Assembly (NCBI GenBank): GCA_048213135.1
Contig: PS015171.1
Coordinates: forward strand, 23,215 to 67,912
Length of the DNA: 44,698 nucleotides
Source of the DNA: Reclinomonas americana ATCC 50394
Taxonomy: Eukaryota
Reading direction: 5' to 3'
The first letter of the stretch is position 1, and the number at the start of each line of letters is the position of its first letter. Positions 9,714-42,540 of this stretch are shown piece by piece. The notes under the pieces are model-generated. The model worked only from the letters and a program-made list of their open reading frames with translations. It did not search any database and had not been told where the DNA came from. The translations under genes and the position numbers were made by a program.

Positions 9714-12700
9714 TTATTTTTTCGCGAGGACGAGGAACGTGGGAATCACGCCGACTCCCTTGCACTGCAGACGAGGTGTGGTGGGTGGGCACAGGATTAA
9801 GAAGAGATGGAGAGACAGGGAGTCGCAGCGCGCGCACTGACCTCGGCACTCGATGATTCGGTCTTGAAAAGACCGCGTGACCGCTGGTTGGTGGCCTCCG
9901 AAATCTGAATCGAGTTCGGCGGTGCCGTGCTGGCCATGCGCGAGGCGACATTGATTGTGTCTGAGCGAGGGACGAGTGAGAAAACGTCACTTAGAGGCGC
10001 CGTTGCGACACTATGGTGGTCGTCTACTCACCGCCATACAGATCAAAGCTCTGTGTCAGCTGACCGACAATGCCAGCGGTACAAGGGCCCGAGTTGATTC
10101 CAGCACGGAACTCGAGCTTAATGCGTCTCTGTACATGCGCACACATGTTACTACATCACGTGTGATGTTGTGGAAGAAAAGACAACTGCCTCACCCTCTC
10201 GCAGAACGATCTGATGGCCTCGAGGGCATGCAGTGCAAAGTCGGTCGCTGCGAACGCATGGTCGGGCCGTGGTCTGTACATTCCGCACACGACCATGTAC
10301 GCGTGACCGATGGTCTTCACCCGCTCCGCGTGCAACTTGCGGACGGTGGTGTCAAGCGTGGAAAAGAGTTCGCCAAACAATCGGATCTCCTCCTGCGCAG
10401 TCAGTGGGCCGGCGCCTGCGTCGGTACCAGTAGGAGTGCGTGAGCAACATGCGCAACTGCACAGGTAAAGACAATACGATGCTCAACCTTGTTCGCTGTC
10501 GATGCGCTCCACATCGCTGAGCTTGATGAAAACACAAGAGACTTCTGGGTGGAAGTCGACCAATGTGACGGTCTGGTGCGCGCGAGAGTCAGTGTCACTC
10601 GCAGCACATTGACACGACAAGTGCAGCAGTGCGTGCACGGCACTGACGCAACGCCAGCATCGTCGGCGGATCTCTCCGATGTCAGTTTGCTCAGCACCGG
10701 TCGGGGGAATGCCGTGTCCAGCATCTTCTCAAACACCGTATTGACACTGCTGAGGACTTGCAAGTCGTCGACCTGCTTTGGTGGCTCGCCCACACGGCAG
10801 GAGTAGTATTTGACACTGTTGACCATGGTCTCGCGCATGCTGAACACACCGTCAAACTTGCTTCCGTCTTTCCGTGTAACCGAGTACACAGCGGGCGCAG
10901 ACGCGTGACCACCGGCGCCCGACGAACGCGAGAAAGTGTTCACGAGGTCGCCGAATGTCGCAGTCTTGTTGTTCAGTGTGAGACGAAGCAGCTGGTCGAT
11001 GGAAATCGCTGTATGCGGAAGGGCGATAAGTACACACGTGCAAAACGAGACACGAAAATCAAGAGGATTGTGCTGTGCGCCCACCAGCTGACGCCAGCTC
11101 GTCCGCCGTGTACCCAAACATCTATCACGTACCACACACACGTTGTGAGAAACTGAGAATCGCCCTGGACCAAGAAAAACACACGCACCCGCTGCACGGC
11201 AGGATTCACTTGCTGAATGACGCCGTTCCGATCGCACCAAATGACGGCGTCGGAAGAGGTGGCCAACACGCCGTGCAACTCGTCGTTCTTGCGTTCCATC
11301 TCGGATCTCGTCTGGCTCTCGTCCGACACGTCTGTGCGTGACAAGGTGCTTGCTTGTAAGGGGCAAGAGACAGAGTGTGCGACTGATGCAAGGTGACGCA
11401 GACCTCGTACAAATGCGCAGTACAGCTGGCGTGTGTCGAGATCGACGCGAATGACGTGGAGATGAACACTGACAGCCTCTCCGGAACGCTTCTGCGCGTA
11501 CACTCCTCGGCCACTGTTTGTATGTGCGTGAGATGCACTGCTCTGTGAGTCTGCGGTCGAGAGTTATGACTTGCATGAAAAGACGACAACGCAACGCCAC
11601 TGCCAGGGCCGACTTGGAGGCGTCCTGTTGGTTCATGCTGCGCACATAGTCATCGTGCCGCTCCTTGTGCGGCTCTGGAACAAACATCTGGCGCCAACTG
11701 TGAGCTAGAGAAAAACAAAAGGTGCATGCACTTGCACAACTCGCGCAGAAGACGTACCCGAACATTTTGCCCGATCACTGCCGCCCGGTCATTGCCGTAA
11801 CCGAGCAGTCGCAGGAGCGAAACATTGATATCCTCGATGATGCCGGCCGTGTCGGTGACCACAAAGCCTGTGAATGGTTCACAAGCAGGATAAAATGAAT
11901 ACCGCATTGGTTACCCCGGGCATGTGTACTTGTACGCAACCATCGTGCATGGAATTGAAAATGTACAACAACTGCACCGCGATTGTGTGGAAAGTGATGA
12001 GATGCGACAATGAGACGGACACCAGCTACAGAAGACCAGACAAAACCTTCTCGCGCTGCTCCTGGAGACGTCGTTCGCGTTCCTTGTCCTCCGACACATC
12101 GTTGATGAAGCAGGAGAAGAATCGTCGTGCGGCAATGCGCCCCTCGGCCAGCGTGACAGTGACGGGCACACCAGATCCGTCGCGATGCACAGCCTGGATG
12201 TACACGAATGGTGAACGGTGAGATATCATCGATCCTTGCAGCAGAGGACTGTGGGTGACTGCGGAGGACGTAACGACGCTTTCGATCGTGCGCCCAATGA
12301 TTCGCGAGGTGCCGGGTGGTTGCAATAGGTACTTGGCAATCAGCTGATCGTGCCTCTCCCTGCACGATGGGATTGGTGTAATGTCGACAAGCAGGCCCTC
12401 ACAGACAGACTACCGACTGACCGTACTTCGGCAGGCACAATCATCTTGATGTTGGAACCAAGTGCGTCCTCGGCCGGGTAGCCCAGCATTCGTGTGAACG
12501 ACTTGTTGACCATCTCGATGAGCCTGCGCGTCAGTGTCAGCTACTTAGCCACCGCACGAGCCACACACACTCTCTTTCTCATGCAAGCAACATCTACACC
12601 ACTCACCCCTTGTCGTTGGTGATGATCACGGCACGGTCCGTGGTCTGCAGAATGGTGCGGAATTTCTCGCTGTTCTCCTTCATCTTCTTGCTGAGGTCAG

Positions 12701-15679
12701 CGGCGGAGCCAAGCATGCTTCCGGCAAAGAGGAACGACTGCAGTCCTTCGTCGCTGTTGATCACCCCAACAGGAATGAAGAGAGCGAGGTGCTTGAGGTA
12801 GCGTGTGTTAGCATCGGCCGTCAGCAACAGCGGTCGAATGTAGAACACCAGCAACAGAATGATGGCGGCCAGGGCGATGCCGAAGAGCGCCTGCAGAATC
12901 ATATTCTGCCGTGCGAGATACGACGAGAAAGCTGACCGCAGTATCTACAGGTCGACAACGCACACACAGATGAACACGAGGACACGTGAAGCAAGCGTAC
13001 TCACTCACTCCCACTCACACGCACCGCATTGCTCTGGACAAAGTAATAGTCGAGGTAGGCGCGGGCAGAGAGCATGATGCTGAGTTGCTCCTGATCAAGA
13101 GCTGCGGATGCTCCATACGACTGCACGAGTACACTGGCGGCGTCAAGAGCTCGGATGAACTGCGACAGAGCGAGACCCGTGAGGAGGAGGAGGAGGAGGA
13201 GGGAGACCTGCGAAACGAAGAACCACACTCACCACCGTATTGTACGGCCAGCACATCAGACCAATCTGCCAGCTGCTGGTGCTGCTCACACTCGGCTCGC
13301 ACCGATCGTCGTAGAGGAGGCTGTTTTGGCGTTCGTTGGCCGACGAGTCCCAAATCATCTCCGTGATGGTCGCCGCGGAGTCGGCTGTTGTTGCAGCCCA
13401 GGCTAGACGAGCGTTGCTGACGGCTGCTTGCAGTGTATCCAACAATAACCGCGGATCGCTAACACCAGAGCCACTGACGAGCTCGGCGGCGGCCAAAGTC
13501 GCCGTCTCAAAGTCTGCCACTCGGTCCTGAGAGTTCTTCACCACCGCCGCGAACACACTGCTCTGGGTGCTGGTGTTGAGGGACACGACTCTGTGGTGCG
13601 CGACGAGCGTGAGAGAGGTTCGGAGGAAGCGCTCGGCACAACAAGTGTGCTGCGTAACTGCATGATGCACAGCAACACGATGATGATGATGGTGAAAACA
13701 GCCACCCGGAACCCGATGTTGCCGAGGAACTGCCAGTCGGTGCGCACGCACTGCGAAGGCCCGTATCTTCGCTTGGCAACCACCTGCGGCGCGTAGCCCT
13801 ACACACCGCCCATGTCAACGGGTTGCTGTCGACATTGCACAACTAACTACAAGTGACAGCAATGAAACGCACCTCGCGTTCCTGCTCCGTCCGTGCCATG
13901 AACGAAAGGAACCTCTCTCGGCACTGAAAGTACACCTCCTGTGCCGTCTTACGGGCAAGCGCCTCAAACGACTGCACCGCGCCCCTCAAGTCGGCAGTCA
14001 ACGATCGCTCAATCAGAACAATGACAACAGCGGCCACGACAGCCACGCATCTGCCAGAGGCATTTCAGCCAATGTATAACAACGATCAAGCCTCACATGC
14101 AACTCACCCAACGAGAACGGCCAAGACAATGGCAGCCTCCAGTCGAAAGCTTCGATTCGTGCTGTCGAGTCGCGCACGGTGCTCATCACGCAGCGCATCC
14201 AGCGCGTCATCGACCCACAGCAGAGCATTCTTCAGCATAAAGTACGGGTTGTTTTTCATGGCCCCGCTGAGCAGCGTTGTGTCTTGCTTTGCGTACTCCT
14301 GCGAAAAAAGTAATGTCAGAGATGCACACGTGACATGACCATCCATGTACAAACGAAAACTAATGGCCGCACCGATGCAAGATCGCTGGTGGCAGCCAGC
14401 ACGTCGGCCAGCGGCAGGGTGCTTTCTACGGACGCCAGCTTGCCAGCCGCCACATCCACCAGCCAGTTGATGGAGACGCTTTGCGACATGGTATTCAGTT
14501 GCTCACTGCGTTGTATGGTGTAAGGTCAGCACCGGTCCGCACACCACCATAAGGGATGACAGGCGGATTCGGAGGCACGCAACTCTTGATACTTGAGTAA
14601 CTCGATGGCATCGCTTCGGGCGGCCGTGGCGTTACCTTGGAGGTAATTGGTGAGATCGCTTACTTGCCGCTGCAGGTCGGCACCGGACGAAGTCGTAGTT
14701 GCCAGTCGTCGAAGGCGCGATGCCGAATAGACGCTGCGCATGAATGCAACCCTGCATGGAAACACGTGTTAGCTAGTGAGCGACAACTGCGATGTGCCCG
14801 ACTGCAGTAGTGGGGGCGACGAAACTTGAGGTGATTGACGGCAAAGGAGGTGACCAGCTGCCGGTTCACGGCCGAGTTGGTTGAGGTGGCAAGCACGAAG
14901 CTGGCAACAACGGTTGCAACGAAGACAATGCCGATGCTGACCAGCAACAGCATGGCCTGGCGCGTGTGTGGATTCTGTGCAGCCTTGTTCAGGAACACAG
15001 AGGACGGCCATCTTTCAGTACGAACTGTCGTCAAACCATTTCCGAGAGAACGACCTGACGGAGCATCGAGGAGTACATGCTGTCCATCGACATGGTGGAG
15101 GATCCTCGCGAGCTGGACGACATTCCGCTGCTGCTGCCGGTGGGTGAGCTATCGGCGTCACTTGTAGTGTCTTTCGCGGCCATGCTGGTGTCGACTGGAG
15201 TAACACTCGGCTTCGTTGCCTCTGCAGTGGACGAAACGACTCGTGAGCTCAGAGAAATGCAGACGGAAGAGGGATGATGGCTGCCAGTTACGAAACTCTC
15301 CACCAGTCGTCGGTGAGAGCCAGCCATCTGCGGACAGAATAGACAGGATCAGCAACAAAAAAAACACAAATAAGAGCGGCAGAGCGAAGCAAGAGACCTT
15401 TCGTGTGCTATTGGATCGAGGCGCCAGCTCATTCGAAATAGCTTGCACCGGTACCATTTCGGTGGCGGTGGGTGCCTCGTCCACATTCACGAAACCGATG
15501 CGTCGAGATTGCGTTCTCTTGACATCATGCCGTGGTGACCGACCAGCTGCGGCGAGGAACTTGCCAGGCACAGTGGCCGTAGCGTGACACCCTTCATCGT
15601 CGTCCTCCTCGTCGCCACAGTCAACCGCCGCACACTCTGCCTCGCTGCCAGTCTCGAACGGCCGCACTGCACCAACAGC

Positions 15680-15736
<57 letters not shown>

Positions 15737-17711
15737 AGTACGTACGTAGACGACGACGACGACGGAGGACGGACGGTAGTACGTGTCGTACGTACGGTAC
15801 CGGTACCGGTAACCGGACCGGTACCGTACCGTACGTTACGTTCGTTTTTGGNNNNNNNNNNNNNNNNNNNNNNNNNNNNNNNNNNNNNNNNNNNNNNNNN
15901 NNNNNNNNNNNNNNNNNNNNNNNNNNNNNNNNNNNNNNNNNNNNNNNNNNNNNNNNNNNNNNNNNNNNNNNNNNNNNNNNNNNNNNNNNNNNNNNNNNNN
16001 NNNNNNNNNNNNNNNNNNNNNNNNNNNNNNNNNNNNNNNNNNNNNNNNNNNNNNNNNNNNNNNNNNNNNNNNNNNNNNNNNNNNNNNNNNNNNNNNNNNN
16101 NNNNNNNNNNNNNNNNNNNNNNNNNNNNNNNNNNNNNNNNNNNNNNNNNNNNNNNNNNNNNNNNNNNNNNNNNNNNNNNNNNNNNNNNNNNNNNNNNNNN
16201 NNNNNNNNNNNNNNNNNNNNNNNNNNNNNNNNNNNNNNNNNNNNNNNNNNNNNNNNNNNNNNNNNNNNNNNNNNNNNNNNNNNNNNNNNNNNNNNNNNNN
16301 NNNNNNNNNNNNNNNNNNNNNNNNNNNNNNNNNNNNNNNNNNNNNNNNNNNNNNNNNNNNNNNNNNNNNNNNNNNNNNNNNNNNNNNNNNNNNNNNNNNN
16401 NNNNNNNNNNNNNNNNNNNNNNNNNNNNNNNNNNNNNNNNNNNNNNNACGAGAGACGTAGAGACGAGAGAGAGAGAGAGAGAGAGAAATGAGTACGTGCA
16501 GATCTAGAGGAGGAGCGACTGTGTCATGGCCTAGGACGCACCGTGATCTGTGTTTGCTGGTGGCGACCTGGCCACTGCCTTGACACGCACAAATCTAGTT
16601 GGCGAGGCGACGGCACGTGTACGAGATGCCACCGTGTTCCCTTGATCGGTGCTGTTACTTGAGGCGGACGACGACAACTGCGCAATGTCCACACGACCAA
16701 CACCACCGTGGTCGTTGGCGGCTCCTGCGTCACGATCGGCTTCTGCCTGTTGTGGATCGTGTGCGTCGAACTTGGTCATAATGAAGTTGAGTTGCTGCAG
16801 GCGGTCGGCCATGTCCATCACGCGCTCGCTGGATGCGGCCTCTGCGTCGGCCGCAGATGTAGTCTGTTCTCGAGAAAGCTCGTCGGCGAGGTCGTCCAGC
16901 AGTGAGCCCGTGCGTTTATCGTTCAGGATCTCTGCAACAAACTTTGCAGCGAAAGGCCGGTCAGCACCGTCGCCAAAGGTAGCACGAAAAGCACAACAAC
17001 ATCGAGCCGGATACCTCCGCAAACATGGTCATTACTTGACCGTCGTTGGGGTAGTCGCGCAGGAGGTCGCGGAACTGCTGCTCGCATTCATCCTGCTGCT
17101 CACGAATGTTGATGGGGATGGTAATGATCCGCTCGTCATGGCGGAACTCGCCGGCGAGGTGCTTCCAGAAGCTGACCAACAACGCGTGTGTCTCGTACCA
17201 CTTCAACCTGGCGGCGCGGATTCTGCAAACGCCACTTCTGTGTCAGGAACAGTGCGGAGAAAACACGTCACACAAAGGCGCAAGTGACACACCTGATGGT
17301 CTTGTCGACACTCTCCTGGCCACTGTCGACAAACATGCGGAGGAACGCAAAGTACTTGAGTCGCATGTCCAGCGGCAACTCCTGCTGCCGCTCTGCCAGC
17401 GCCGAGCCAATAGCAATGGCAGTGTCGCTGTCGATCTCGTAGTGCCACAAGTAGTGCGCGTACAGCAGACTGAGTACAGGCGACTGCGGGAGACACTCGC
17501 TACCGAGATCGAAAATGTCTCGGGCTCGAGCCAGCGGATCCTGCGTGTGCGACGTCGGAATGCGAGCCACAAACTCCACATCGTACGCGTTGGAGAAGAG
17601 GCCATGGATACCGGCCGACATGTCGCTGGCATCGGAGGCCATTCCGTACCGACTTTGCGGACTCTGGAACAGCGCAAATGTCAGGAGTCGTGCAATTACG
17701 GCAAGGTGTAT

Positions 17712-17744
<33 letters not shown>

Positions 17745-19409
17745 ACCTGCAGCGTCGACTCGTTCCCCTGCCCACCACTGCGTAGCGAGTCGATGAACTG
17801 GTCCACCGCCTTCCCCAGCACCGCCAGTCGCCATCGTTGAAGCAGTAAACCGACGACGACAGCAATCGGCAAGCCAGCACCAAGAATGATGAGGGAGAGG
17901 AGTGTGCGGGTGAGCAGCTGGCTTGCACTTGGTGCCGTGGTCGCGGGGATCACAGAGACGGCCGCCCACAGGATGCATCCGACACCCACGTGCGACATGA
18001 TGTTGGTGGAGTGTCGGTAAAAGGGCGAGAACCGGATGGCGAAAATGGTGTATGTGAGTGCCAGTATGGCCACACCCGCTGCTGCGTGCACCACGCCAAG
18101 CCGCGCCGCAAAGAATGTATGTGTAATGCACAACATGATACGGCACACATTCAGGGTGGCCAAGAACCGGCCGGCCAGAGGGCCCGCCGTGAACGCTGGC
18201 GAGGTCGGCTCGAAATCCTGAGAGAGCAAATTGGCCAGGGTGGTCACCACCCCCAGGAAGGTAACTGCCAGCACACCCAGCGAGCCGAGGAGCATATTGG
18301 ACGACTGCAGAGACAGCAGCAGCACACAGACTCAGTCAGCTATAGTGATGCGGTGGATGATTTGCGATCCCCAAACCTTGCTGCACACAAGCGCAACACC
18401 GCCGTCGGTGGTGCTCAAGTGCGTCATGTCGTCAAAGTTGCAGTGCAGAGGCCGCAGCAGTGCGAGACACACCGGCGTCAGCGCCACGGAACTCAGCAAA
18501 TGCAACTGCATGCGCAGCGCGCGGACCAGCAGTGTCGACTCGGCTGTTGTCTCATCGTCGCTCACCGATGTTCCGGCCTTGCGAGTCGACGACGTGCGCA
18601 CCTGCACGGAGACCTTCCGCAGACGACGAAAGGCCACCACAATCTGCCAGACGAGCGCCGCCACATACACCAGCACAAAGACGGAGATGCTCTGCACGAA
18701 ACCGAGCGAGACCGTCTGCAATCATGTAGAGCAGTAAGGCATCGGTCATCGCTACCACCAAATGCATCGCAAAGAGCGAACCCAGGGGACAACTTCGTTG
18801 GCAAGGAAGGCGTAGCGCAGGACGCGTGGAATCCACACCGACCAGCCGCCGGTATTCGACAAGCTGCCGAGGCCGCCAGTCGAGAGCGGCGCAAACATCC
18901 ACGGATCCAGCACCAGCATCAGGGTCTGGAAGAAGATGAACAGCGTGACAGCCATCTCGATCCACAGCGCCTGCACGATATTCACGGTTCACATAAGAGG
19001 AAATCAGTGGTGGATTGCCTTTTTTGGCTTCTTCAAAACTAATTATTCTCTTTCCCCCCTGTTTTCTCATTCGCTGCACATTTTTTTGTGCGCCGTGTGT
19101 GCGAGACGTCTATCTCCCACCTCTTCTCCTGCAAACCCTCCTCACTCCACCAAAGCAACAAGTGCGCAATGTCTCAAAGCACTGTGCGCAACTTGGTACT
19201 CTCTCTGCTTCTGCGACCTGTATATGTGATGGTGGTGCCAAACTCACCGAGCCTGTGGAGCTCGTCGTGCGTCGGAAGAGGGCAAACAGGAACTTGTCCA
19301 TGTTGCCGGCCGCCTGCTGCTTGTTCATTGGCGATGCGTCATTCCATCCACCACCGCCACCATGGCCATCTGCGTGGCAACGGCTAGGCGAGTCCGCTGG
19401 CGTGGCCAT
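9714..19409 (-). CDS. Gene C: TmcB-like multi-pass membrane protein with 3 PAS domains and a class III cyclase domain of C2 type (adenine-specifying, lacks the metal-binding Asps)
   Basis: ATG at 19409 and multiple TM segments (ALWIEMAVTLFIFFQ..., LLGSLGVLAVTFLGVV...). FSNAYDVEFVAR motif and TPR-like helices. PAS repeats at about 10790-12660. The spliced cyclase reads VSCVFIKLSDV...VKTIGHAYMVVCG...RAGINSGPCTAGIVG...FDLYGDTINVASRM...CKGVG, with TAA at 9714-9716. Confidence 0.85.
15682..15733. repeat. (GA)n microsatellite inside a gene C intron, continuing after the gap at about 16466-16486
   Basis: Direct reading. The flanking exons join in phase 1 across a single intron 15667-16541 (TDH-VRPFETG). 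Confidence 0.9.
15852..16447. other. Assembly gap (N run) within a gene C intron
   Basis: Run of N flanked by GA repeats. Confidence 0.99.
17714..17743. repeat. (GT)n microsatellite inside a gene C intron
   Basis: Direct reading. Shorter GT/CA and GA/CT tracts are common in introns throughout the window. Confidence 0.9.
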
Positions 19410-20046
19410 TGCTGCGCCAATCCAGTGCGTATGCGCAACGTGTGGTGTGCGAAAGAGGAGAAAACACGGCTGAGAAGTCTCGCCTGCAAAGCCGCTTCTC
19501 TCTCGCCACAAACTGCAAAAACAATGAGTTTGTAGACGACGAAGACGTTTCCAGACCGTTACTTTGCAGCGCGGGTTGGACATACTCCATTCTGTGAAAC
19601 AACAGCCCCTGACCAGCGTGGTGTGGAGAGTCGTGTGGCAGAGTACAAAAACCGGCTGCGATGATCGCCAGTTTGCGTCTCTGCTGCCGCATCATTCGCC
19701 ACGGTGACGATCGTCACTAGCTTTTACCAAAAGATGCCTTTCTAGACAATAACGCGGTTGCAATTGGCGCATCCCCGTGGAGGACGTGGCAGCAACGTGG
19801 AGCGCTCCCATGGCTCGGTGACCCGTCGCGACGCGCAACTTTCCAGCTTGCCATACGCTGATATGCCGGAGTACACACCCTCCTGTTTGGTCCGGAAACC
19901 CGCTTCCTTTTGGAAAACAAAAGTTCTTTTCGTGTCATGTCTGGATATCTAAAACAGCGGAACAAAGTCAGCCGTCTCTTGTCGTGCACCTTAGACTGCA
20001 TTCGCCATCCACAGCATTGTCATCAGTGAAAGTACAATTTTGTTCA

Positions 20047-23000
20047 TTATCGAGGCGACTGTCTCTCAGCATCGACCGCAGATTCTGCTGCTGCCGTGAC
20101 GGCTGCTGCTGTTTCGGGCGTCTCCGAGAACCGCACCACCGATCCTTGTCTCCTGCTGTAATCCAAATTCGAAAATGAGCGCATTTGCGTCGGCACTCGA
20201 ATGAGTTGCGGTCGCTCCTCGCCGCCGTTCGGTGCCGCACCATCCGCACTAGCGGAGCCGTTTGCGGCATCAGAGATGTGCTGGAGAGCGGCCAAGTTCG
20301 GGCGAGCCACACTCAAGCGTCGATCGGTGGAGACCACGCTGATGCGGCGGTTCGCCGGAGGCATTGCGGCCTGCAGCATTGCTCCGGCATCTGCTGCTGG
20401 TGCTGCCGCCGTCGCCCCTGTCGCCGACTCTGCGCCAGCGACAACCGCCGTTGTGACCGAGGTTGCCACGTTGCCGAGAGCGTACTTGCTGTTTGGGGGG
20501 GCGCTGGCGGCGACGAGACTGGTGCCGGCCATTTTCGGGCAATCGTCGCGGAGCTCGAGTGGGAAGGCGTGTCCCAGCAGCGCGGTCACTTGACTGGAGA
20601 CGTGCACGCGACCCGGCTTACTGAGTTCTTCCAGGTGGACGGCATTATCGATCGCGTCCCCGTACAACTCAAACGTCAAGTTGTCGGTACCGAGAACGCA
20701 GGTCGTGAGTGGTCCAGTGTGCACGCCGACCCTGATCTGGATGTTGTAGTTGTTGGCCTGTGCGCACGTGCATGATGGGGTGAGAATCAACACCGTGCAG
20801 AAAGAAGGCGCTGCTACAAGAGTACGTAACTTCGTTGAACTTGTGCAGCTCCGACATGACCTCCACGGCAAAGCCGACCACTGCCTTGACGTGCTTCTCC
20901 GGCTCAATGACCTCCTGCATGCCACACACGGCAATGTAGGCGTCGCCAATGAGCTTGCACCGAATGAGTCCGTACTTGATGGCCACGCTGTCGAAAATGT
21001 CAAACATGGCGGAGATGGTGGCGATGAGCGTGTCGGGCGACAGTTGCGAGCTCATGCGCGTAAAGTTGACAATGTCGCTCGCAAACACCGTCACACTTTC
21101 GTGCTCCTCGATGATCGGTTCCTTGGAGCCATTGCACTCCTGGAGAAGTGCACACAAACAATTTAGTGTTGTTTACAGAGAACCACCGACCACAGAAAAC
21201 GCTGCGCAACTCGGTCCATGATCTGCGCAAGCACATACGGCGGGAAGGAGCAACGCAAAAGGTTGCGACTCGAAAGCCCACTCGCGGCCGCCTCCTCTAG
21301 CTGGCGCATCAGTGCCTCGGCATCCTCCACAAACGCCACAAAGATGCGACGACCGCCAACGCGGCCCTCCCGCACTTTTACGTTGGCGTAAAACCTGTCA
21401 CCGTTGGCTCTCCTGGCCGGCGTTCCGTAGGTGCCCTTGCCAATAATCTGACTCCTACCCGAGCGCAGGTACTCGGCAATGTAGCGATCGTGTGCCTCGC
21501 GATGTTGGTCGGTGCCAACCAGCTCCTTCACGTTCACATGTCGCATCGATCCAGCCTCGTAGCCAAACTGCTCCTCGGCTGTTGAATTGGCCTCCTGGAT
21601 GATTCCGTGGTCGTCGCACACTATAATACCATGGTCGTAGTGCTTGATAATGGTGCTGAGCTCCTCGCCAATGCGCACAATCTCCGCCAACGCCTCACGC
21701 TGCACGGTAAGATCTGCAGGAAGTATGAGTTTCTCGCTTACAATGCATCAACAGCTACTGCTTTGGCGCAGCCGCGTACCTCGCAAATAGGCAGCAAAGA
21801 ATCGTGCTCGGCCGTCGTTGCCGTCGACAACCGTCAGCTTCAAGTGGACGAGGCTGCCGTCTTTGCGCAGGCCCTGCACATTGCGGCCATTCTCCAACAC
21901 TCCACCGTCTTCGCCTGTCTCCACCAGCCTCTGCAGGTACTCGTCGTGCCTGACCACAGTTTGTAAGCACTCACGAAAGCAGGCTTGTTGTATCAAGGAG
22001 GTCAGCACACTCACCGATCGCAGTGGGGTGCAGGCATCAACATGTTGACCTTTTGGCCCACCTACAAGACGGGAAATGTGCGATCAGCCAAGAGTGTATC
22101 ACTCGCGCAAGCATGCATGCATTTGCATACCATCTCCTCTCGGCTGTACAAGAAGATCTTGGAGGCCGTCTCGTTGACATTGGTGATAACTCCGGTCACA
22201 TCAATGATAACCAGAGCGTCCTTAGAGCCGTCAAGAATCCTCTGCGTGCGCTGCTCCTCGGCTGCGTAAGGCGAGTGAGTGATGGTGGCAAGTAGGATGC
22301 TCTCCACATGGAACGAAACTGCGTTGTTGTGCTTGTTGTGCCGACCTCTCCGACATGTCGTGCACAAAGGCCCTGTAGACCAGATACTGTGATGTGAGCA
22401 ATGTGCACACACATGACGCGGATCGGAGAGAATTGCGACGACGCACGCGAAGAATCGAGCGCTCTTCAGTCGAGCCTCGCTGACACTGACAATCACAGGC
22501 CGCGTTGAACCATCCTTGCAAGTAAGGTCGCTCTGAATGCTGCGACCCACCAGACGCGAAGCGCCAGTGAGGACGTGATTGGCGATGAGCTGTACACGCA
22601 AGAGAGTCAGTCGGCTGCAGTGTTCTGTGGTTTGCATTGCAGCACATCCGCCCACAAGTCACCTGGTCGTGGCGGTCGCGTACGTGTGCCGGTGTAAGAA
22701 TCTTTACGTTTTGCCCGACGAGCTCTGCGAGGCGAAAATGATAAGTATGAAGACATGCAATACGGAGAGGAGCGCGTGTGTTCGTACCAGTGTCGGAGAA
22801 TCCAGCCAGACGCGACATGGCAATGTTGGTCATTTGAATGATTCCGAGCTCGTTGCACAGCAAGACACCGTCGGAAGATGACTGCAACACAGAAAACAAC
22901 TTCTCCTCGGCTTCCTTCATGGAGTCGTTGAGGCGCGCCTCGGAAATCTCTTGGCCTGCGCGCAGGCAACAAAGCTGTGAGCCAGATCAAAAGACTTCGG

Positions 23001-26000
23001 CAAAGAGAAAGAGAGTGTCACGCACCGCGCACAACGAAATCGTGAATAACGGTCACGGAAGTGACGACATCGGGCGCCAAGTGGCTCAACATCTTGCGAA
23101 CTTGTTCCGACTGAAGAAGAGGCGATTGCAAGTATTGAGTAGCGTGAACAGTCAGCAAAATTTTTCGTATGACGACACCTTGCGATAAAAGTGGCCGAAT
23201 GATGGCAGCACCATGAGGAATGCGACAGCAGCGAGCGCAATCAGCTGTGCGCAGAAGTCTGTGAGCGACAGCTCGCCGGTGCACTCACAAGCGATATATA
23301 ACTCACGCCAAGGATGAACAGAGCCTCGATCAACAGCAGGCTGGTGGAGATGGCCGACTCCAACTCCCGCTGGTAGTAGTCCGTGGAGGTGTCAAAGGAA
23401 GCGCCCAGCACGGATGATGCCGTCTCCAGAAACAGGGCGTTCGAGTTTGAGATGGTCAACCGCGAAGTGCTACTGAGTGTGGCTGCTGCCGACTGAAGAA
23501 TGCCGAACGCTTGGGTGAGCTGCATTGTATGCATGGGGGAGAGAGGCAGTGAGACAACACTAAAGTGGGGACAACAGAGCGGAACACCACAAACCACAGT
23601 GTTTGTCGCGGCGCAAGAAATAAAGTCGGTGATCGCCTGCTTGTCAGAGGTCACCGTACCGGCAGCCGACACTGTATTGGCGCACTGTGTGGCGTACAGC
23701 AGTTCCTGCTGATCCACAGAATTGAACGCACGCCGACTGCTCGGCGTGGAGGAGTCGACGAATCGGAGCGAGTTGTGTGAGGTCGCCATCTGTGGTGCCG
23801 AGCATGAGCAAGTGCAACGACGCCGGCATAAATCGACAAGTGTACGCAACGGCTTGTAGAGACGACACCCACAGTGTTTGTATCTCACTGCTGCCGAATA
23901 GATTTTCGTTCTCAAACAGACCTATCAACAGCAAATAGAGTGCGTGAGAAGCAGGACGATGACACACACACATCAGCACATGTACTACTCGCCTGTTGCC
24001 TGAGAAAAGTCCGTAGAAGCCACTTGTGTGCAGCGACGAGCCTCGCAGAACAAGGCCAGCATGTTGTACAAATTCGAGAGGCGCACGCTGGACGTGTTCA
24101 TCTCGAAGGCCAGGGATGTGGAGCGGGTGTGCAGGCTTGACGCGGCCGCCCACCACACGCCAAATGTTCCGCAGAAGATCAGCATGGCAATGAAAATGGT
24201 GAACAGCATCTGGCGTCGCAAGGGAATCCGGTTGGGTGCAGCCTCGGAAGACTGCAACGCCTCCTGCTCCAACGTCGAAACGAAGATCGTTAGCGTCACG
24301 TACACAGAGCAAAGGGACACATACTATAGTGGGTGCTTGCCTCACCTCGTTGTTGCCTGCGACTGTGGAGCTTTCGGCGGCAGCGTCCGACGAGTACGAA
24401 GTCATGCTACCGTAGGCGCGGAACAGCGCTTTGGCTGCCGTCTTCGGCACCACCAGGAAGAGGCGAAGTGTGAATGCCTGTCGCTTGCGATGATGCAAGA
24501 AGGCCGGAACGAAGACACACAACCAGAAGAACACTCCGACGCCGAGACAGACTGCGAGCGCCAGAGTGGTGACCTGGTAGTGGTCAGCGAGGTTTGCTTG
24601 CTGAAGTCCTTCAAAGTACGCGTTCAGTGCGTCCATCGCCGGCAGCAGCTGCAGGGGGCCGTTGCGCACGACATACATGAACTGAGGCGACTTGCGCAAG
24701 GCATCTCGACTCGTCCACGTTGTCGATGCAATGGACTGCCGGTCGTAGCAAGTTAGAAGTCAGACATCACAAGCACACACATACAGCAACGCCGCGCACG
24801 CTCACACACCTTGGCATCTTCAAACAGATTCAATGCCAAATCCTTGAAGAGAACTGTCATTTGCCTCATTTGCGGTGTCTGCCCGTTCGCAGCCGTGTAG
24901 TACACTTCGACGGTACTGCAGCAGAGGACGCAGGTACGCACACATTGGTAAGCACAACTTGTGTGGTTTCATACATACAAATCGCCAGGCTGCACGTAAC
25001 AGAGAACGCGACAAGATCGAGTCGAATTGGTTTGTGTCAACGAAAAGTGACTCGAAGAGTGATGTTGCTTGCTTTGCTTGCGTCAGCATGCTGGCCTGTA
25101 ACATGGCAATGCGGGCAGCGCTGAAGTCGCCCGCTGTAAGACCCAGCTCTTGAGACAGCAGTGTTGCCTTGTAGGTCAGCATCGCAACCGATTCCCTGTG
25201 CAAAAGAGAGTTAATACGATGTGGGAGGTGGAAGTGGGAGAGCGCTCTCTTTGCTTACCTTACGGTCGTCGTCTTGTCCCACCAGTGGAGGTCCGTCATC
25301 TCATCTCCCTCATTCACCACGAGGATCGCAAATGTGACGAGCACGGCAAACAATAGCACCAGCAGCGTGCAAAAGACAACAAACAGCAATCCGCGGTGCG
25401 GTCTACCGAGCCAGTTAGTACACTCCCAAAGAGCCAGCAAGACGCGCGGTGCATATTCACGACACTCAACTTGCCGGCACTGACTTCGAGCTCGTCCTCT
25501 GGTACCGTCGAGTTGCGTTGCATGTCGGTATCCTTGGTTGCCTTGGGCTTCAGTCGCGAGACCAACTTTCGTCCGTTGGGATTGGCGCGCACTGCCAACA
25601 GCAGCACCGATGTCAGTGTCACGCTGTGTTATCTCGTGTGAAAACAATACAGACAAACGCACAGCGATTAGACTTCTCCGCAGTGGTAGCCGTTGTCTCT
25701 GTGGCCTCATCTCCGTCGTCTTCGCCAGCAGGTACCGCATGCGGCATTTGCGGCGTCTCTTGAAGCCAGTTCGTAATTCGGTCCAGTTTCTCTGCGCAAG
25801 CAGTGAGCAAAAGAGTGATTATAGCCAAACGATGGACGAAATGAGTTCAAGAATACCTGCATCGATAGTTGCCTCCGCTCCTTCGTCGCTGACGTCGTCA
25901 AATGCGCCACCTAATAGTGACTACATGTGAGCACTGCGCACCAGGCGACAGTTGTAGCACGATAGCATCTCACCTTGGAGCCCCTGCTCAAACTGTGGGT

Positions 26001-28795
26001 AGTACTCTTCGTCGGCTACCGCAGCGCTGTGATTCGACCGACTGCTGATCAGGTACCGATCTCCATGCCCGGTGTGGTCGGCCATGTCAGCATCGCTCAC
26101 TGGCACGACTTTGCCGGAGACGGCCGCACCCTTGTGGGTTCGATTGTCACGTGTGTCGGTGGTGCGGACAGCATGCACTTGCTCTTGTTGCACTCGTTTC
26201 GGATCGGCATGTCGCAGCAGGCGAGCGCGCAAGTCAAACAAGCGGCGCCGGCGAGCATTCGTGTCGGCGGCAGTGCCTCCATGCGCAGCTCCGCCGCTGG
26301 CAATGGGCGCCACCTTACCGTCGCCATCAGCCGTTATCGCGTACTGATCTCTCGAGTCAACGCGGCCCGACGCGTCCTCTGCGGCGTTGGCTTGACGCTG
26401 CAGTTCGTCAGCCTCGTGTGGCATCCGACGGAAGGTGCGCAAAAACTGCAATGCGCGCATGCATTGACGTGTGAGGAAGCAGTAGACGCCCGAGCAAGCC
26501 CTCCCGAGCATCGAACCTCCGAATACAAACGAAGCAGGCTGCGGTTGGTCGGGTATTCGACCACAAGGCGCTCGAACAGACGACTGAGTTTCGTCTCCAC
26601 CTCCTCGATGGTATCGATCAGAGGTGGCAGAACTTCCACGTTCACGTCTTCTTGCAGCACGTTCTTCCAGAATTTGCGATGCATGTTTCTGCAGCACCAA
26701 GCGGACACAGATGATTGACGGTGTCAGTGAGGAATGTAGTGCGCCAGCAATAAATGAAATGTACCGACACTTACCGCATGCGTGTCATGAGCTGACGGAT
26801 TTGTGTCATTTGTCGGCGCAGCGTGTCATCCTCCTCGACGTCGGCGATCTTCTTGACTACAAGGAAGACAATGAATTGCAGATCTATTGGCTGTTGATGC
26901 GGTTCGCCGGCTTCTGCTCGGTTGCGCAGAGTGAGTGCGCAGGGTACGAGAGGGAGAGGTGTCGAGTAGATGGAGGCAACGCACCCTTGATGACCTTGTA
27001 CACTTGACGAGAATCGACACCGTGCTGCATCATGAAAATGGCGTGGAACAAACGCAGGTGCTTGCTCTCGGGGAACATGAGAATGCCTGCGTGTGGCGAC
27101 GGAGAGACATAGTGTGGTGCTGAGTATGGAACATCTCGAAGCCGAGCAGACCAGATGTGCCTCACCATACTCAAATACGGCGTTCGCCCAAGCGGCGTAT
27201 GCCGGTCCGAGATATGCAGTGAGAACACAAGGGCGAGTGAGGATCTCGGCCTCGTATGCGCTCTGGAAGATGTCGTCGTCCATTTGGCCCTGCACACACA
27301 CAAACACGTGCGTGAGCACACAAAAGGGCGGACAGAGAGTAAGTACAAATGCATTTTCCCTCAAACACACCGCCTCCAACAGCGGCCCACTCGCCACAAT
27401 CTTGCTGAAAAACCGTGAATGCAAGTGCGCCACTCGGCTTGTCACTGTTCGTGCTCCAATAAATAGCGCCAGAGCACCGACCACGACGAACACAACGCCG
27501 GCAGCAATGGATGTACTCTCGCCACCAATCGATACTGCAGGGCGATCGAGGAAAAGTCAGCACGGCTTGTCAAGGTCGGTAACCGTGCAAGTTGAAAATA
27601 ATGCTCACCAATGGCGGCGGCACCGACTGCACTGGCGCTAAGAAGCAGCCAGGCACACCAAAACGTATTGGCCGACACCTTGTAGAAGGGCAGTCGATGC
27701 GCTGCGTGCCAAATGCACACACAGAGCAGGACTGAGGCAAGCACCGAGGCAAGGGGTGCCACCAGGGTGGAGGTGAAGTTGGGTACGAAAATGAGCACTG
27801 TCTTCAGCAGAGATGCGCCAAAAAAGGCACGGCCCGCTTGTGGACCGGCGGCGAACCCGTGCGCCATATATCGGTACTCGACGGCACTACATGCAGGCGT
27901 GTATCAGCATCACGAATATGCACGCTGACACGCAATGCGACGCAACAATGCAGAGCTTGCCAAAGCAATGGCAGTGTACGCCAAGGCGATTATGGTACCG
28001 AGTACACCCATGATGAGTGTGGGCAGAGTGGCGCACGCTTCCGTTTCGCCACCACTGTGGCCGAGGCGCACTATCGTGGACGACGAGTAGTCGCAGTGCA
28101 CGGGTGCGATGAGAGCAAGGCACACCGGCACATGCAACACGCTGAAGGTGAGCGGCGCATGCAGCTGGAGATATCGTGTCGCCAGTTGTCCTGCGTGGCA
28201 CGCCTGCATCCACTTCGGAAGAGCAGAGCGCGAGCTGGCCATGGAAATCACCAGCGCAATGACTGTTGGTGCAGCGTATAGGGCGGCGACGACGAACGCC
28301 ACCAAGCCCGACAGTGCCGAGTGGCTGATCAGTGGGACGAAGGAGGCTGGTATGTAGAGCACTCGCACCACGATGCCGGGAATGCCACTCTGTGCCCGAG
28401 CGAGACAACAGAGTGAGGTTCGGGACACAGAGAGAGGGGAAAATGGGAGGGTGTTTGGCGGTGGTGACGCACCCAGGCGAGGTAAGGCTGCAGAGCCAGA
28501 CCAAGGATCTGGAGACTCATGATGAAGACCAGCAGTTTTTCGACCCACGCGCCTCGGCGGTGACCGTGGGTAAGTCGTGCGCAGCCTTCACCAAAGAGCG
28601 GAAACAGCATCTCTTGCAGCGTTTGCAGGCGTGACTCATCGGCGCCGGCCACGCCGCTGGTGGCCGTGGAGAGCGCGGCACTGTACGCATGGATAGAGAG
28701 TGTAATGTTAGAGCTGTGTGACGACAGGAGAGAGGGAGGGACGGCAGAGTGCACCTGCTTGCGCCATCCTTGACACTACTGGCGGCAACAGACAT
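20047..28795 (-). CDS. Gene D: TmcB-like multi-pass membrane protein with 3 FixL-like PAS domains and a class III cyclase domain of C1 type (has the metal-binding Asps, lacks the catalytic Asn/Arg); paralog of gene C
   Basis: ATG at 28795 (MSVAASSVKDGAS) with a phase-2 first intron. Same architecture as gene C (FQSAYEAEILTR; FAAGPQAGR vs FTAGPLAGR). PAS repeats at about 21320-22900. The cyclase reads VTVFASDIVNFTRMSSQLSP...CKLIGDAYIAVCG...RVGVHTGP...FELYGDAIDNAVHLEE, followed by a low-complexity tail and TAA at 20047-20049. Confidence 0.85.
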
Positions 28796-29283: not shown

Positions 29284-31391
29284 TTAATCGACTTCAATAT
29301 CAACGTGCAAGTGTAACGTGCCAGTGTCCTCGCACAGCCACACGCGTGGATCGGAGGCGCTGCGGTCAGCCGGTACAGCATCAATGTGCAGATCGAGACC
29401 AGAAGCCACAGGCGCCAATGAAGCATCCCACGCGGCCGCCAACCGGCGAGCACACTCACGAGCCTGCAGCAATTTTCTTTGTAAAACAACTAATTGCAAC
29501 GACTTTCCTCTGTTTCTGTGCGCGTGTGTAAACAAAGCGCACCTGTGACACTGTCACCGTGGGGTCGAAGTGGACTAGGCGGACGCCGCGCAGCTTGATT
29601 CGACACTCGTTGCAGATGGCGACCATGTCCTTGTTCCTTTGTGCGGCGGTCTAACATTGGCGGACAAGTTGGTGGTGGTGTGGCAAACGTGCGAGCTCGA
29701 TCGTAACACGTACCTTTTGCAGGGCGACACCGCGTGCACCCAGCGTGCGTATTCGGTAGCTGACCTCCTCGGCAGTGCTAGACTCGTTCACGTACAAGAA
29801 GCCGTGTACCGGATGCACGGGTGATTCGTGAGCTTCACGGCCCGTCGTGACAACCACGGACAGGAACGACCGATCTTCCGACGAGGTGCACTGGTGGATG
29901 TTTCGCTTTCCGGTGCGGAACACATGTGGCAAGGCAGTCATCCGATCGAGGAACGCGAGGTAACTGCATGCATCAGAGATACAGTGAGCAAGTGATGTTG
30001 CGCAGCCTCGACGCACGACACGCGCGCAGCAGTCCAACCTGGGCGATGTAGTGTGGTCAAACACCTCGGAGAACACGGCGCCCACATCCATGCTGTGCAC
30101 GGCCAGCTTTTCTTTTTCACGCGCAGACTCGTACACGAGTCGTCTGCACATGCACACCCACGATGAGTGCGCTCGAATGGAATCGGGCACGACTCCCAAG
30201 ACGCAACAGCCGATGACCGGCCGCCACGTCCACTCGCGAGAGCACATCATACCACGACTCGCTGGCCTCCTCCGTGTTAAGAACCACGCGGCCGGTGGCA
30301 TCCAGCCCGCTTGGTCTCTTCCGAGAGAAACACAGCCGCAGTCCACTCATCGACATCGATCGACCAGCGGGTGTGCTGCTCTTCGCTTTCAGCTCCGCAA
30401 TGAGCGTGTGGCTGATCTGCGCCTGCCTTCTCACGTCGCTCTCGTCTTCAAAGTGCACGTTTCGGAACGCCCACTCGTGCGTCAGCACGTGCTGCACGCT
30501 AATGAGACAACACTGATTGATGGTCACGCAATGTGAACAAAGACGTACGCAACTCGGTTCCAGTGAAACGCTCGATCGGCCTGCAATCGCTCCTCCTGAC
30601 GCAGCCGAATAAGGTCGACGTGCTGCGCCACGAATCGACGCAGCGTTCCTGCACGACCCAGACTCGGATCATCACGCGACAAGCCGAAATCCGAGTCCGA
30701 CTCGCTCTGCAGCAACATTGACACACGTATACACGCACAGAGAGAGAAACACGCGCGCGTACCAGATCGAGAGCATCGGTGGGCAGGCCAAACGCCTCAA
30801 ACACCGACAGCAGATTGCGCTGGAACTTGTTGAGCTTGACGGGCGGTGGATCTGTTGGCGCATGCACATGTCGCAAGCGAATGGCGACCCGCTGCAACTC
30901 ATGTCTGGCGACAGAGAGGGCGAGAAGGAGAGAGAGAGAGAGTGAAGCAGATGAGTTCTCTGCCGCACATCGATCGCACTCCACACACATACACACACAC
31001 CTCTGTATGTCAGCACTCTTCTTATCCGTCGGCTTCACAAAGAACTCCAGCTCGTGATTGGTGCGATCGTCGGGCTCATTCGCCGACACAGACTGCATAT
31101 ACGCCTGCAACTTTGCAAACGACGTCTCATTCGTCTCCTGCACCTCTCCAAAATGAGTGGCAACTTCGCCATACTCACTGCGATACACACAGAAACCTTC
31201 TCGTGCGGGAAATGCGCGGAGAACAAGTCGGGGTGAACGCGCATGTAGATCTTGCGCAAGTGCGAGCGCAGTGAGTGTGACTCGTCGGCTGTCTTTGATG
31301 ATGCTGTCGTCGCGTATACACATCGGTGTGGCAGCACAGCTCGAGGAAGCGTCGAGTGGAATGCACCAATGAGCCTTCTCACGATGATCAT
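29284..31391 (-). CDS. TCAIM: Gene E: T-cell activation inhibitor, mitochondrial (TCAIM)-like protein (DUF4460/DUF4461, degenerate J-domain)
   Basis: Presequence-like N-terminus. The spliced LRKIYMRVHPDLFSAHFPHEK-ETNETSFAKLQAYM matches the TCAIM/DUF4460 VHPDxF...E...NExS motif. Exons join in frame to TAA at 29284-29286. Confidence 0.75.
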
Positions 31392-31570
31392 TGCGAGCGG
31401 AACAAAAGCGCAGCGTCCTGCGAAGCTCACATTGTGCGATCGTCGTCAATCGTGCGCAGCGACTGTGTGTGTGTGTGTCTCTTTCTCTGTCTTTGTGTGT
31501 GTTCTCACCTGTGCGCAGTCTGTGTGTGTGTGTGCCCAGGCATCTATCATAAGCAAGAAAACCAGGCGTC

Positions 31571-34079: not shown

Positions 34080-34370
34080 GCGCGTTACTCTTATCCACGT
34101 CTCACAACCCATGTAATTTTTTGAATGGAATGTGTTGATACCCCGTTCACTTGGTGTTGTGTTCACAATCCACACTGGGAGGCGAGCAGCACTGAGAGAG
34201 GAGAGAAGAAGTACACATTCGACTGGGACAGAGTTGTTTTCTGGTTGCGGTCCTGCCGATACGAGCAGCCTTGGTTGGCTTGTTCGAAGGAGAAGGACGG
34301 GCTGGATCAGAGACAAAAGACAAGGAAAGGCACAGAGAAATGTCCAGAGACTGGGCGCCATGTGCGCGTC

Positions 34371-41674: not shown

Positions 41675-42433
41675 TCAGTCTACATTGAAACTCTCACCAC
41701 ATCCACAGGTGCCCTTGGCATTGGGATTGGTGAATGTGAACTCACTGGCCAGTCGCGTCTCCTGTGCATCGCCCGTCGCAGGCTGGTTGAGTTCGACGTG
41801 CACCTGGAGGGGGAAAAAGGAGAGGAGAGCAACACACACCTTGTAGTCCATCTCCACTCCCAGCAAGTACATGAGTGCCTTTGGCTCGATGACCACACGG
41901 ACGCCTGCGACCAAGAGGAGGAATGAGAGAACACACGCACACACGCAGACGCACATGCGCGTGAGAGAGGTACACGCACCCTTCGTCTCCACCACCTCCT
42001 CAAACTTGCCCGGCGGCTCACGAGCATAGTTGAGTGTGTACGAGAAGCCATTGCATCCACCACGCCGCACTCCCAGTCGCACTCCATAACAAGGACCGCC
42101 ACTGTCGCCGCTCTGCTCCGTCTGCATCCGCATCAACTCCGCAATTCGCTCCGCCGCCGCATCAGTCTGCCACCCACCAATCACATCACTCATCATCCAA
42201 CCATATCTCACGTGCACACTCCTTACCAATGTCAAAACTTCTTTCCGTGGTCGTAGCCGCGCAGCTGGTCGCTCCGGCAACGGTGCACCACCACTCGCGC
42301 CTCCACGCCGATCGCACGCTGACGTGTCGCGAGCTGCGGACGACGACAAGGATGACATGGAACGCGGTGGTGCCCATGCGGCGACGACTGTAAACTCCAC
42401 GCGAGACAACCGCGTCACTAGTGCACGCAGCAT
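41675..42433 (-). CDS. ISCA1: Gene H: mitochondrial A-type iron-sulfur cluster assembly protein 1, 4 exons
   Basis: Presequence [11 protein letters not shown]. Motifs [25 protein letters not shown] and [29 protein letters not shown]. Introns at 42167-42226, 41905-41979 and 41762-41839. Confidence 0.95.
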   Translation of the reverse strand: [252 protein letters not shown]

Positions 42434-42540
42434 CGTCGCTCTTTGAGTGGATAAGGATGCGCGGATTCCACGACAATCAACAAACAATTGTCGCGGGCTG
42501 GTGACTGCTTGCCAAGTGCGTTGGGCGTGGACTGGGGAGG

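Follow-up and report, generated by a model that had tools for sequence, protein, structure and literature searches.

Adjacent Reclinomonas americana genes with complementary class III cyclase domains: candidate halves of a heterodimeric membrane adenylyl cyclase

Class III nucleotide cyclases form their active sites at a dimer interface, with a pair of metal-binding Asp residues from one subunit and the base-specifying residues, an Asn, an Arg and a Lys from the other; loss of the Asn and Arg cripples these enzymes. In soluble guanylyl cyclase (sGC) the catalytic residues are split between an alpha and a beta chain and the homodimers are inactive (PMC3591389). Residues D486 and D530 of alpha are the metal Asp pair, beta gives the base, Arg and Lys residues, and the pseudo-symmetric second site is a candidate regulatory pocket (PMC3591389). 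The transmembrane adenylyl cyclases (tmACs) split their catalytic residues in the same way, again leaving a pseudo-site (PMC8815786). Among microbial eukaryotes, the chytrid receptor cyclases RGC1/2 and NeoR are separately encoded by adjacent genes and are active only as heterodimers (PMC8815786, PMC10622942); RGC1/2 retain all catalytic residues, which leaves their need for a heterodimer unexplained by complementary loss (PMC8815786). Protist haem-sensor cyclases also exist, namely the globin-coupled oxygen-sensing adenylate cyclases (OACs) of Leishmania (PMC7719234). Both the complementary heterodimer (C1/C2 of tmAC, alpha/beta of sGC) and the adjacency of heterodimer genes (chytrid NeoR/RGC) are already known. 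Here we analyze a 44.7 kb stretch of Reclinomonas americana DNA (the window; eukaryotic, G+C about 57%), in which two neighboring genes, C and D, encode large membrane proteins ending in class III cyclase domains that carry complementary sets of catalytic residues.

C and D lie head to tail on the minus strand, with D upstream. The cyclase domain of C is built from five in-frame exons totaling 573 nucleotides (nt) and ending in TAA, and the D exons 21713-21211, 21139-20831 and 20757-20047 likewise join in frame. Introns between the cyclase exons of both genes are 66-77 nt long with GT..CAG borders. One D cyclase junction is bridged independently by a database fragment, P0151, that is contiguous across it and 70% identical over 86 residues. 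For the D exon that precedes the cyclase domain a homology-guided splice was used, as the gene finder's version had dropped the helix motif.

20047..28795, minus strand: gene D, the C1/alpha-like candidate subunit; 34 exons and about 2188 residues by the gene finder
21211..21713, minus strand: D exon with the third PAS domain (PAS3) and a pre-cyclase transducer-like helix (..SFPPYVLAQIMDR), by homology-guided splice
21140-21210, minus strand: D intron of 71 nt, GTTGCG..CTCCAG
20831..21139, minus strand: D cyclase exon 1, with both metal Asp residues, the phosphate loop DIVNFT and Lys 20954-20956
20758-20830, minus strand: D intron of 73 nt after cyclase exon 1
20047..20757, minus strand: D cyclase exon 2 and low-complexity tail, with the Glu of FELYG, the residues at the Asn and Arg positions and the PKMAG Lys
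9714..19409, minus strand: gene C, the C2/beta-like candidate subunit; from the gene finder on each side of an assembly gap, collinear with D
10488..10572, minus strand: C cyclase exon a, with Lys at the first metal-Asp position (VFIKLSD) and a degenerate phosphate loop
10195..10415, minus strand: C cyclase exon b, with Lys 10315-10317 and His 10303-10305 (VKTIGHAYM)
10032..10128, minus strand: C cyclase exon c, with Asp 10042-10044 (FDLYG)
9842..9960, minus strand: C cyclase exon d, with Asn 9950-9952 and Arg 9938-9940 (DTINVASRM)
9714..9764, minus strand: C cyclase exon e, the CKGVGVIPTFLV strand with Lys 9759-9761, then the stop

What does each domain retain? D has both metal-binding Asp residues (GAC at 21074-21076 in FASD; GAC at 20942-20944 in IGD) and the Lys of K-x-I-G-D (20954-20956). 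Its base-specifying Asp position is Glu (20668-20670, FELYG), its Asn position is Asp (GAT, 20647-20649) and its Arg position is His (CAC, 20635-20637). D has no KG motif; the Lys of PKMAG (20533-20535) stands opposite the CKGVG of C in an ambiguous alignment. In C the two metal positions are Lys (AAG at 10522-10524, FIK) and His (CAC at 10303-10305, IGH). Present in C are the adenine-specifying Lys (AAG, 10315-10317), the base-specifying Asp (GAT, 10042-10044, FDLYG), the Asn (AAT, 9950-9952), the Arg (CGC, 9938-9940) and the KG Lys (AAG, 9759-9761, CKGVG). Over the seven key positions D reads D, K, D, E, D, H and an ambiguous A or K, and C reads K, K, H, D, N, R, K. Neither domain alone carries a full homodimer-type catalytic set; the residue sets of C and D are complementary.

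An earlier note on this DNA had named most of these residues, and a codon check found every D and C codon that it named correct at its position. Its account of C, without both metal Asp residues and with the Lys, Asp, Asn, Arg and KG Lys kept, agrees with the codons. For D, the Asp pair, the Asp and His in place of Asn and Arg, and the missing KG motif all hold, with the retained Lys, the Glu and the PKMAG Lys as nuances to be added. The C and D residues occupy the same six columns by hmmalign, and alignment to solved cyclases in the PDB (AC8, AC9 and a rhodopsin guanylyl cyclase) anchors the key columns: VKTIGHAYM of C aligns with KILGDCYY of AC8, DTINVASRM of C with GDTVNTASRM of the rhodopsin guanylyl cyclase, and GDAIDNAVHLEE of D with GDTVNIASRMD of AC9 C2 as well as with AC9 C1.

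Is the loss confined to these residues? A HMMER search of 1.84 billion representative sequences returned 11710 proteins at E<=1e-3 and 495 at E<=1e-10; none matched at E<=1e-30, and no full-length orthologue was found among them. The best 150 proteins gave 229 cyclase domains, of which the 199 covering more than 75% of the profile were kept as a reference set; C and D were themselves in the alignment behind the profile. Sixty-four of the 199 read DKDDNRK. Structural segments were scored in bits with a position-specific scoring matrix derived from 64 canonical domains, giving the following values and class medians.

b1-a1 (first Asp and phosphate loop): D +47.4, C -5.4
a2-b3: D +52.9, C +50.9
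b4: D +28.3, C +27.9
b5-a4 (Asp, Asn, Arg): D -8.4, C +30.0
b7-b8 (KG): D -20.0, C +2.2
Reference class with Asp kept and Asn/Arg lost (n = 55): median b1-a1 32.6, b5-a4 10.4, b7-b8 -2.5
Reference class without Asp and with Asn/Arg kept (n = 30): median b1-a1 15.0, b5-a4 37.9, b7-b8 36.7
Canonical reference class (n = 75): median b1-a1 46.8, b5-a4 75.3, b7-b8 42.1

D fits the class that keeps Asp and has lost Asn and Arg, and C fits the class without Asp that keeps Asn and Arg, weakly so in b7-b8. Judged by these scores, it is secure that the decay is reciprocal across whole structural segments, beyond single residues, and that D has the character of a C1/alpha-type half, and C that of a C2/beta-type half. 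Post-hoc arithmetic puts the frequency with which random losses would fall in a complementary pattern at about 1 in 75 to 1 in 150; on this estimate the pattern exceeds chance. The same division is frequent within single chains. Of the 58 homologues with at least two near-full cyclase domains, 42 have a first domain that is missing one or both Asp residues and retains Asn and Arg, and a second that retains both Asp residues and has lost Asn and Arg.

The earlier note had allowed that other exons might restore the missing residues. A cyclase profile run against 1317 open reading frames (ORFs) of at least 12 residues on both strands matched only six known exons, apart from two noise matches at E 5-7, and the window thus holds no hidden exon that gives the lost residues back; alternative cyclase exons are ruled out at this level of detection. 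Pfam was also run on 143 stop-to-stop ORFs of at least 42 residues from the minus strand between 9500 and 29300, leaving aside shorter ORFs and those with at least five X from a gap. The class III cyclase family PF00211 matched five of the 143, at 23-62 bits against a cutoff of 21.9: three in 9800-10482 (gene C; 50.2, 28.7 and 23.2 bits) and two in 20050-21172 (gene D; 61.8 and 45.5 bits), all passing the gathering score. Five ORFs of this set matched PAS families. Outside the C/D region, 187 ORFs reached 75 residues or more; Pfam, run on the longer 118 of them, found no cyclase.

What enzyme would such a pair make? The best reading, to which we give an even chance, is that C and D form an obligate heterodimer. 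D would supply the two metal-binding Asp residues and the phosphate loop, like C1 of tmAC or alpha of sGC, and C would supply the adenine-specifying Lys and Asp, the ribose Asn, the transition-state Arg and the KG Lys, like C2 or beta. A head-to-tail C/D dimer would have one complete ATP site, making cyclic AMP (cAMP); ATP is the predicted substrate because of the Lys and Asp on the C side. The second pocket, with Lys and His from C and Lys, Glu, Asp and His from D, would be a dead pseudo-site that could act as an allosteric pocket. A C/C dimer would have no metal site and a D/D dimer no Asn or Arg. The PAS domains would regulate output, possibly by haem or gas sensing. We infer dimerisation, homodimer inactivity, the cAMP product and PAS regulation from sequence alone.

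Where did the two genes come from? Residues 159-680 of D match 115-708 of C at 21% identity (E 1e-19), and residues 1277-2006 of D match 461-1230 of the second part of C at 25% identity (E 1e-64). By hydropathy, each protein has about seven membrane spans grouped at its N terminus and a further group of four or five. Their common architecture comprises multi-pass membrane blocks, a TmcB-type TPR, three PAS domains, a pre-cyclase helix and the class III cyclase domain; the helix, ..(F/L)P..V(L/A).. in both, we take to be of the transducer type.

26517..26693, minus strand: D TmcB-type TPR; PF25474 at 33.9 bits (cutoff 27), E 3.5e-8, residues 11-69 of ORF 26337-26723
21282..22955, minus strand: three FixL-like PAS domains of D; Pfam PAS in ORFs 22234-22986, 22065-22658 and 21166-21747
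17015..17191, minus strand: C TmcB-type TPR; PF25474 at 21.7 bits, below the cutoff of 27, E 2e-4, in ORF 16964-17242, collinear with the D match
10653..12523, minus strand: three PAS domains of C (motifs RERHDQLIAKY, HKERHDDYV) and transducer-like helix (..AFPRPVLSKL..); gene model and Pfam, the latter with matches in ORFs 12343-12540 and 11653-11910, both under gathering scores

On these alignments C and D are old collinear paralogues. The TmcB label that both proteins had been given stands for D; for C the match is under the cutoff, though collinear. The proposal of gene duplication fares well, the two being collinear, of one architecture and 21-25% identical, as whole-gene duplication would give. 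Given this common and unusual architecture, the simplest history of C and D is whole-gene duplication followed by reciprocal loss.

The cyclase domains give a less simple picture of whether this history was independent, as had been claimed. In a FastTree analysis of 201 domains, D grouped with the second, Asp-keeping domain of P0064, a two-domain protein (support 0.89), and C was unplaced. A quick IQ-TREE tree (LG+G4) of 60 rows, comprising every domain of 24 selected proteins, 14 canonical domains drawn at random, C and D, recovered the D-P0064 join at 95, with a flag for the meeting of long branches; resolution is low, 25 of the 57 inner branches being open, and the C branch has a length of 1.71. 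A single C+D clade is compatible with the data by the approximately unbiased (AU) test (p 0.918), the constrained tree standing 46 log-likelihood units above a short free search. The join of D to the P0064 second domain in two trees weakens the claim of independence, and an origin shared with the single-chain pseudoheterodimers is possible.

The D cyclase exon found no homologue among longer proteins (294-2000 residues), and the C cyclase exon found none among proteins of 59-189 residues. At near length, the D exon found only two short D-like fragments in ENA, P0151 and P0010, respectively 70% and 60% identical to the D cyclase domain. KLI(G/V)D and the unusual Glu of YELYG are present in both, P0151 has FASD in addition, and both end directly after YELYGG, short of the Asn and Arg positions, at a point where gene C, unlike D, has an intron. 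With tblastn and the best 25 of the 150 proteins as queries, high-scoring segment pairs were confined to the cyclase exons save for one of 18 residues. A metagenome scan gave three loci with identity of only 39-40%, and the first membrane block of D, as a query against the ESM Atlas, gave only unnamed clusters.

Are C and D two genes or one? D ends in tandem stops at 20049-20044, TAA (20047-20049) followed by TGA, and its 3' tail scores as coding down to about 20115. The C protein probably begins at ATG 19407-19409 (MATPADSP..), which lies in good context with coding signal thereafter, and ends at TAA 9714-9716.

19410..20046, minus strand: spacer from the D stop to the probable C start, about 640 nt, with stops in every frame and coding scores <=0

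Small exons that the gene finder placed at 20047-19586, upstream of the C ATG, are probably spurious. The strand order, a C1-like D followed by a C2-like C, mirrors tmAC, and a read-through transcript might splice the D tail to the first exons of C, giving a single TM-C1-TM-C2 chain as in animal tmAC. Against such a fusion, the D frame scores as coding right up to the tandem stops, and the spacer then leads to the C ATG and its coding signal, scored with a codon model trained on the same genes. We consider one fused gene very unlikely and two separate genes the better reading. That the genes are kept side by side, as had been stated, is borne out by adjacency, common orientation and the short spacer, and is tempered by its resting on a single scaffold with a 596-N gap inside C. 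This run (15852-16447) separates the N-terminal membrane/TPR half of C from the PAS-cyclase half, so that C is modeled as two flanking parts of 819 and 1265 residues and the linkage of its cyclase half to D depends on the scaffold join. The D stretch between the two collinear blocks fits the sequence around the gap, which makes the join plausible on this comparison. Exon models outside the cyclase domains come from an ad hoc gene finder whose training set was C and D themselves, and their coordinates are therefore approximate. The start of D is uncertain: the earlier note's ATG 28795 (MSVAASSVKDG..) competes with three upstream exons added by the gene finder from 29282, and homology backs neither. 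In the modeled C protein, a run at about 17293-17767 (minus strand; ..DTHTHTHTHTL..) resembles a translated dinucleotide repeat and may be a missed intron. A pseudogene reading of C and D is ruled out, as both have long intact spliced frames.

Several observations weigh against an obligate C+D heterodimer. The b7-b8 segment of C scores +2.2 against a class median of 36.7, and a2-b3 has diverged in C and D alike (about 52 bits, against 108 for canonical domains), so the pair could be catalytically poor. Residual D/D activity may occur, since D still has the Lys and both Asp residues. Five of 82 single-domain homologues keep both Asp residues with Asn and Arg lost, like D. The cyclase half of C is linked to D only through the scaffold across the gap. 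Homologue searches located no orthologous C/D pair in another species, and conservation of the pairing and of the C pattern would accordingly be judged from a single species. Paralogues elsewhere in the genome may be the true partners, the scan having covered the 44.7 kb window. As for the five D-like single-domain homologues (P0028, P0121, P0061, P0148 and P0099), they may be partner-dependent subunits or non-canonical enzymes.

These points lend themselves to other explanations. The complementarity might be real and the neighbor not the partner, or not the sole one, with C-type and D-type paralogues mixing combinatorially like sGC and nematode GCY subunits. The age of the pair (21-25% identity) would have allowed such a family to arise, and the D-like fragments P0151 and P0010 are not alike and might represent either paralogues or variants between species; but C and D are adjacent, co-oriented and separated by only about 640 nt, and no further cyclase domain was found in the 44.7 kb, which makes us regard combinatorial mixing as unlikely. 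It is also improbable, in our view, that one or both domains are pseudo-cyclases that make no cAMP and serve only as dimerisation, nucleotide-binding or regulatory modules. The a2-b3 divergence in both domains, the long C branch and the weak C b7-b8 would all suit that explanation, but random decay should not spare exactly complementary residues and segments: C keeps five of five non-metal residues, D keeps two of two metal Asp residues with an intact phosphate loop, and two related sequences share the metal motifs of D. A weak, non-canonical D homodimer with C as a dead modulator that titrates or inhibits it could draw on the Asp pair and Lys of D, on a His that could partly stabilise the transition state from the Arg position, and on the 5/82 homologues that keep Asp without Asn and Arg. 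We rate it as quite unlikely, for a pure inhibitor gives no reason for the intact Lys, Asp, Asn, Arg and KG Lys of C, and the loss of Asn and Arg is crippling in this class.

The PAS domains bear on how an obligate C+D heterodimer might be controlled. Their best PDB relatives are haem-PAS domains of FixL (D PAS3, E 5.8e-11; D PAS2, E 5e-7; C PAS1, E 0.003), and a His-Asp-x-Tyr motif of the D and C domains aligns with the proximal-His motif of FixL. At the position of the haem-ligand His, D has RDRHDQ, CDRHDEYL and EAHDRYI; by eye, the His-Asp motif is present in five of the six modeled PAS domains. D PAS3 is without the distal Arg in the FixL alignment. The comparison suggests haem-based gas or redox sensing, which would be a further parallel to sGC. 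One may go further and see in the locus a convergent, membrane-bound counterpart of sGC: a haem-PAS-gated receptor adenylyl cyclase split by duplication and reciprocal loss into tandem genes, with two sensor arms and a pseudo-site converging on one cAMP output. We hold this fuller picture only tentatively, as something short of an even bet.

How does the locus compare with the described systems? As in sGC, two paralogous chains carry PAS-type domains and a helical linker before the cyclase domain, possibly with haem input. Unlike sGC, whose product is cGMP and whose chains are soluble with H-NOX domains, the C/D pair would make cAMP, as predicted from the Lys and Asp, and consists of multi-pass membrane proteins with TmcB-type TPR and FixL-like PAS domains; the relation to sGC is at the level of the domain family only, sGC chains being weak PDB matches. 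The vertebrate sGC alpha1 and beta1 genes adjoin one another, although a literature search brought up no confirmation. With C1/C2 of tmAC the pair shares the division of labour: D can be aligned to AC9 C1, which shares the loss of the Arg, and the C2-type DTxNxASRM is present in C. Unlike tmAC and the protist two-domain cyclases, C and D are most likely two genes, and they have other membrane and sensor modules. In most related two-domain proteins the Asp-less half comes first; here the Asp-keeping gene D is upstream. The chytrid NeoR/RGC genes are also neighbors that encode receptor cyclases of a microbial eukaryote, and rhodopsin cyclases are the best solved relatives of D (E 8e-17). Unlike C and D, the chytrid genes are divergent (head to head), make cGMP and use a rhodopsin sensor, whereas for the tandem C/D pair the argument rests wholly on complementary loss. 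The likeness to FixL and DosP lies in PAS domains that resemble haem-PAS and carry a His motif, strongest in D and weaker in C; the domain giving the output is a cyclase in place of a kinase or phosphodiesterase and, unlike in the OACs, the candidate sensor is PAS and not globin. A literature search with partial coverage, most subscription journals lying outside it, turned up neither a TmcB-PAS-cyclase nor a protist two-gene complementary adenylyl cyclase.

The remainder of the window contains assembly gaps at 5932-6360 and 6593-7343, which with the gap in C make three, and genes with an EGF/laminin-EGF domain, DUF4460 and DUF4461, an H-type lectin domain and an Fe-S cluster biosynthesis (HesB/IscA-type) domain. 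The non-cyclase neighbors found by the Pfam scan are as follows.

4817-5677, minus strand: non-cyclase neighbor gene
30120-31445, minus strand: non-cyclase neighbor gene
34150-35573, minus strand: non-cyclase neighbor gene
41678-43210, minus strand: non-cyclase neighbor gene

What would the C/D pair mean if the heterodimer is real? It would possibly be the first natural two-gene complementary adenylyl, rather than guanylyl, cyclase. If the heterodimer is obligate, the C1/C2 or alpha/beta division would have arisen again in a third setting, a giant TmcB/PAS multi-pass receptor made of separate chains and producing cAMP. The pair would bear on the frequency with which duplication and reciprocal loss lock paralogues together, and it would offer a compact test system, the two catalytic domains being open to mixing in vitro. 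A further suggestion would be a sensor logic with one active site under the control of a pseudo-site and two different receptor arms. The locus carries a warning for annotation, since each gene alone would pass as an ordinary, or dead, adenylate cyclase. P0151 and P0010 show that relatives of the organism are present in public data, as fragments only.

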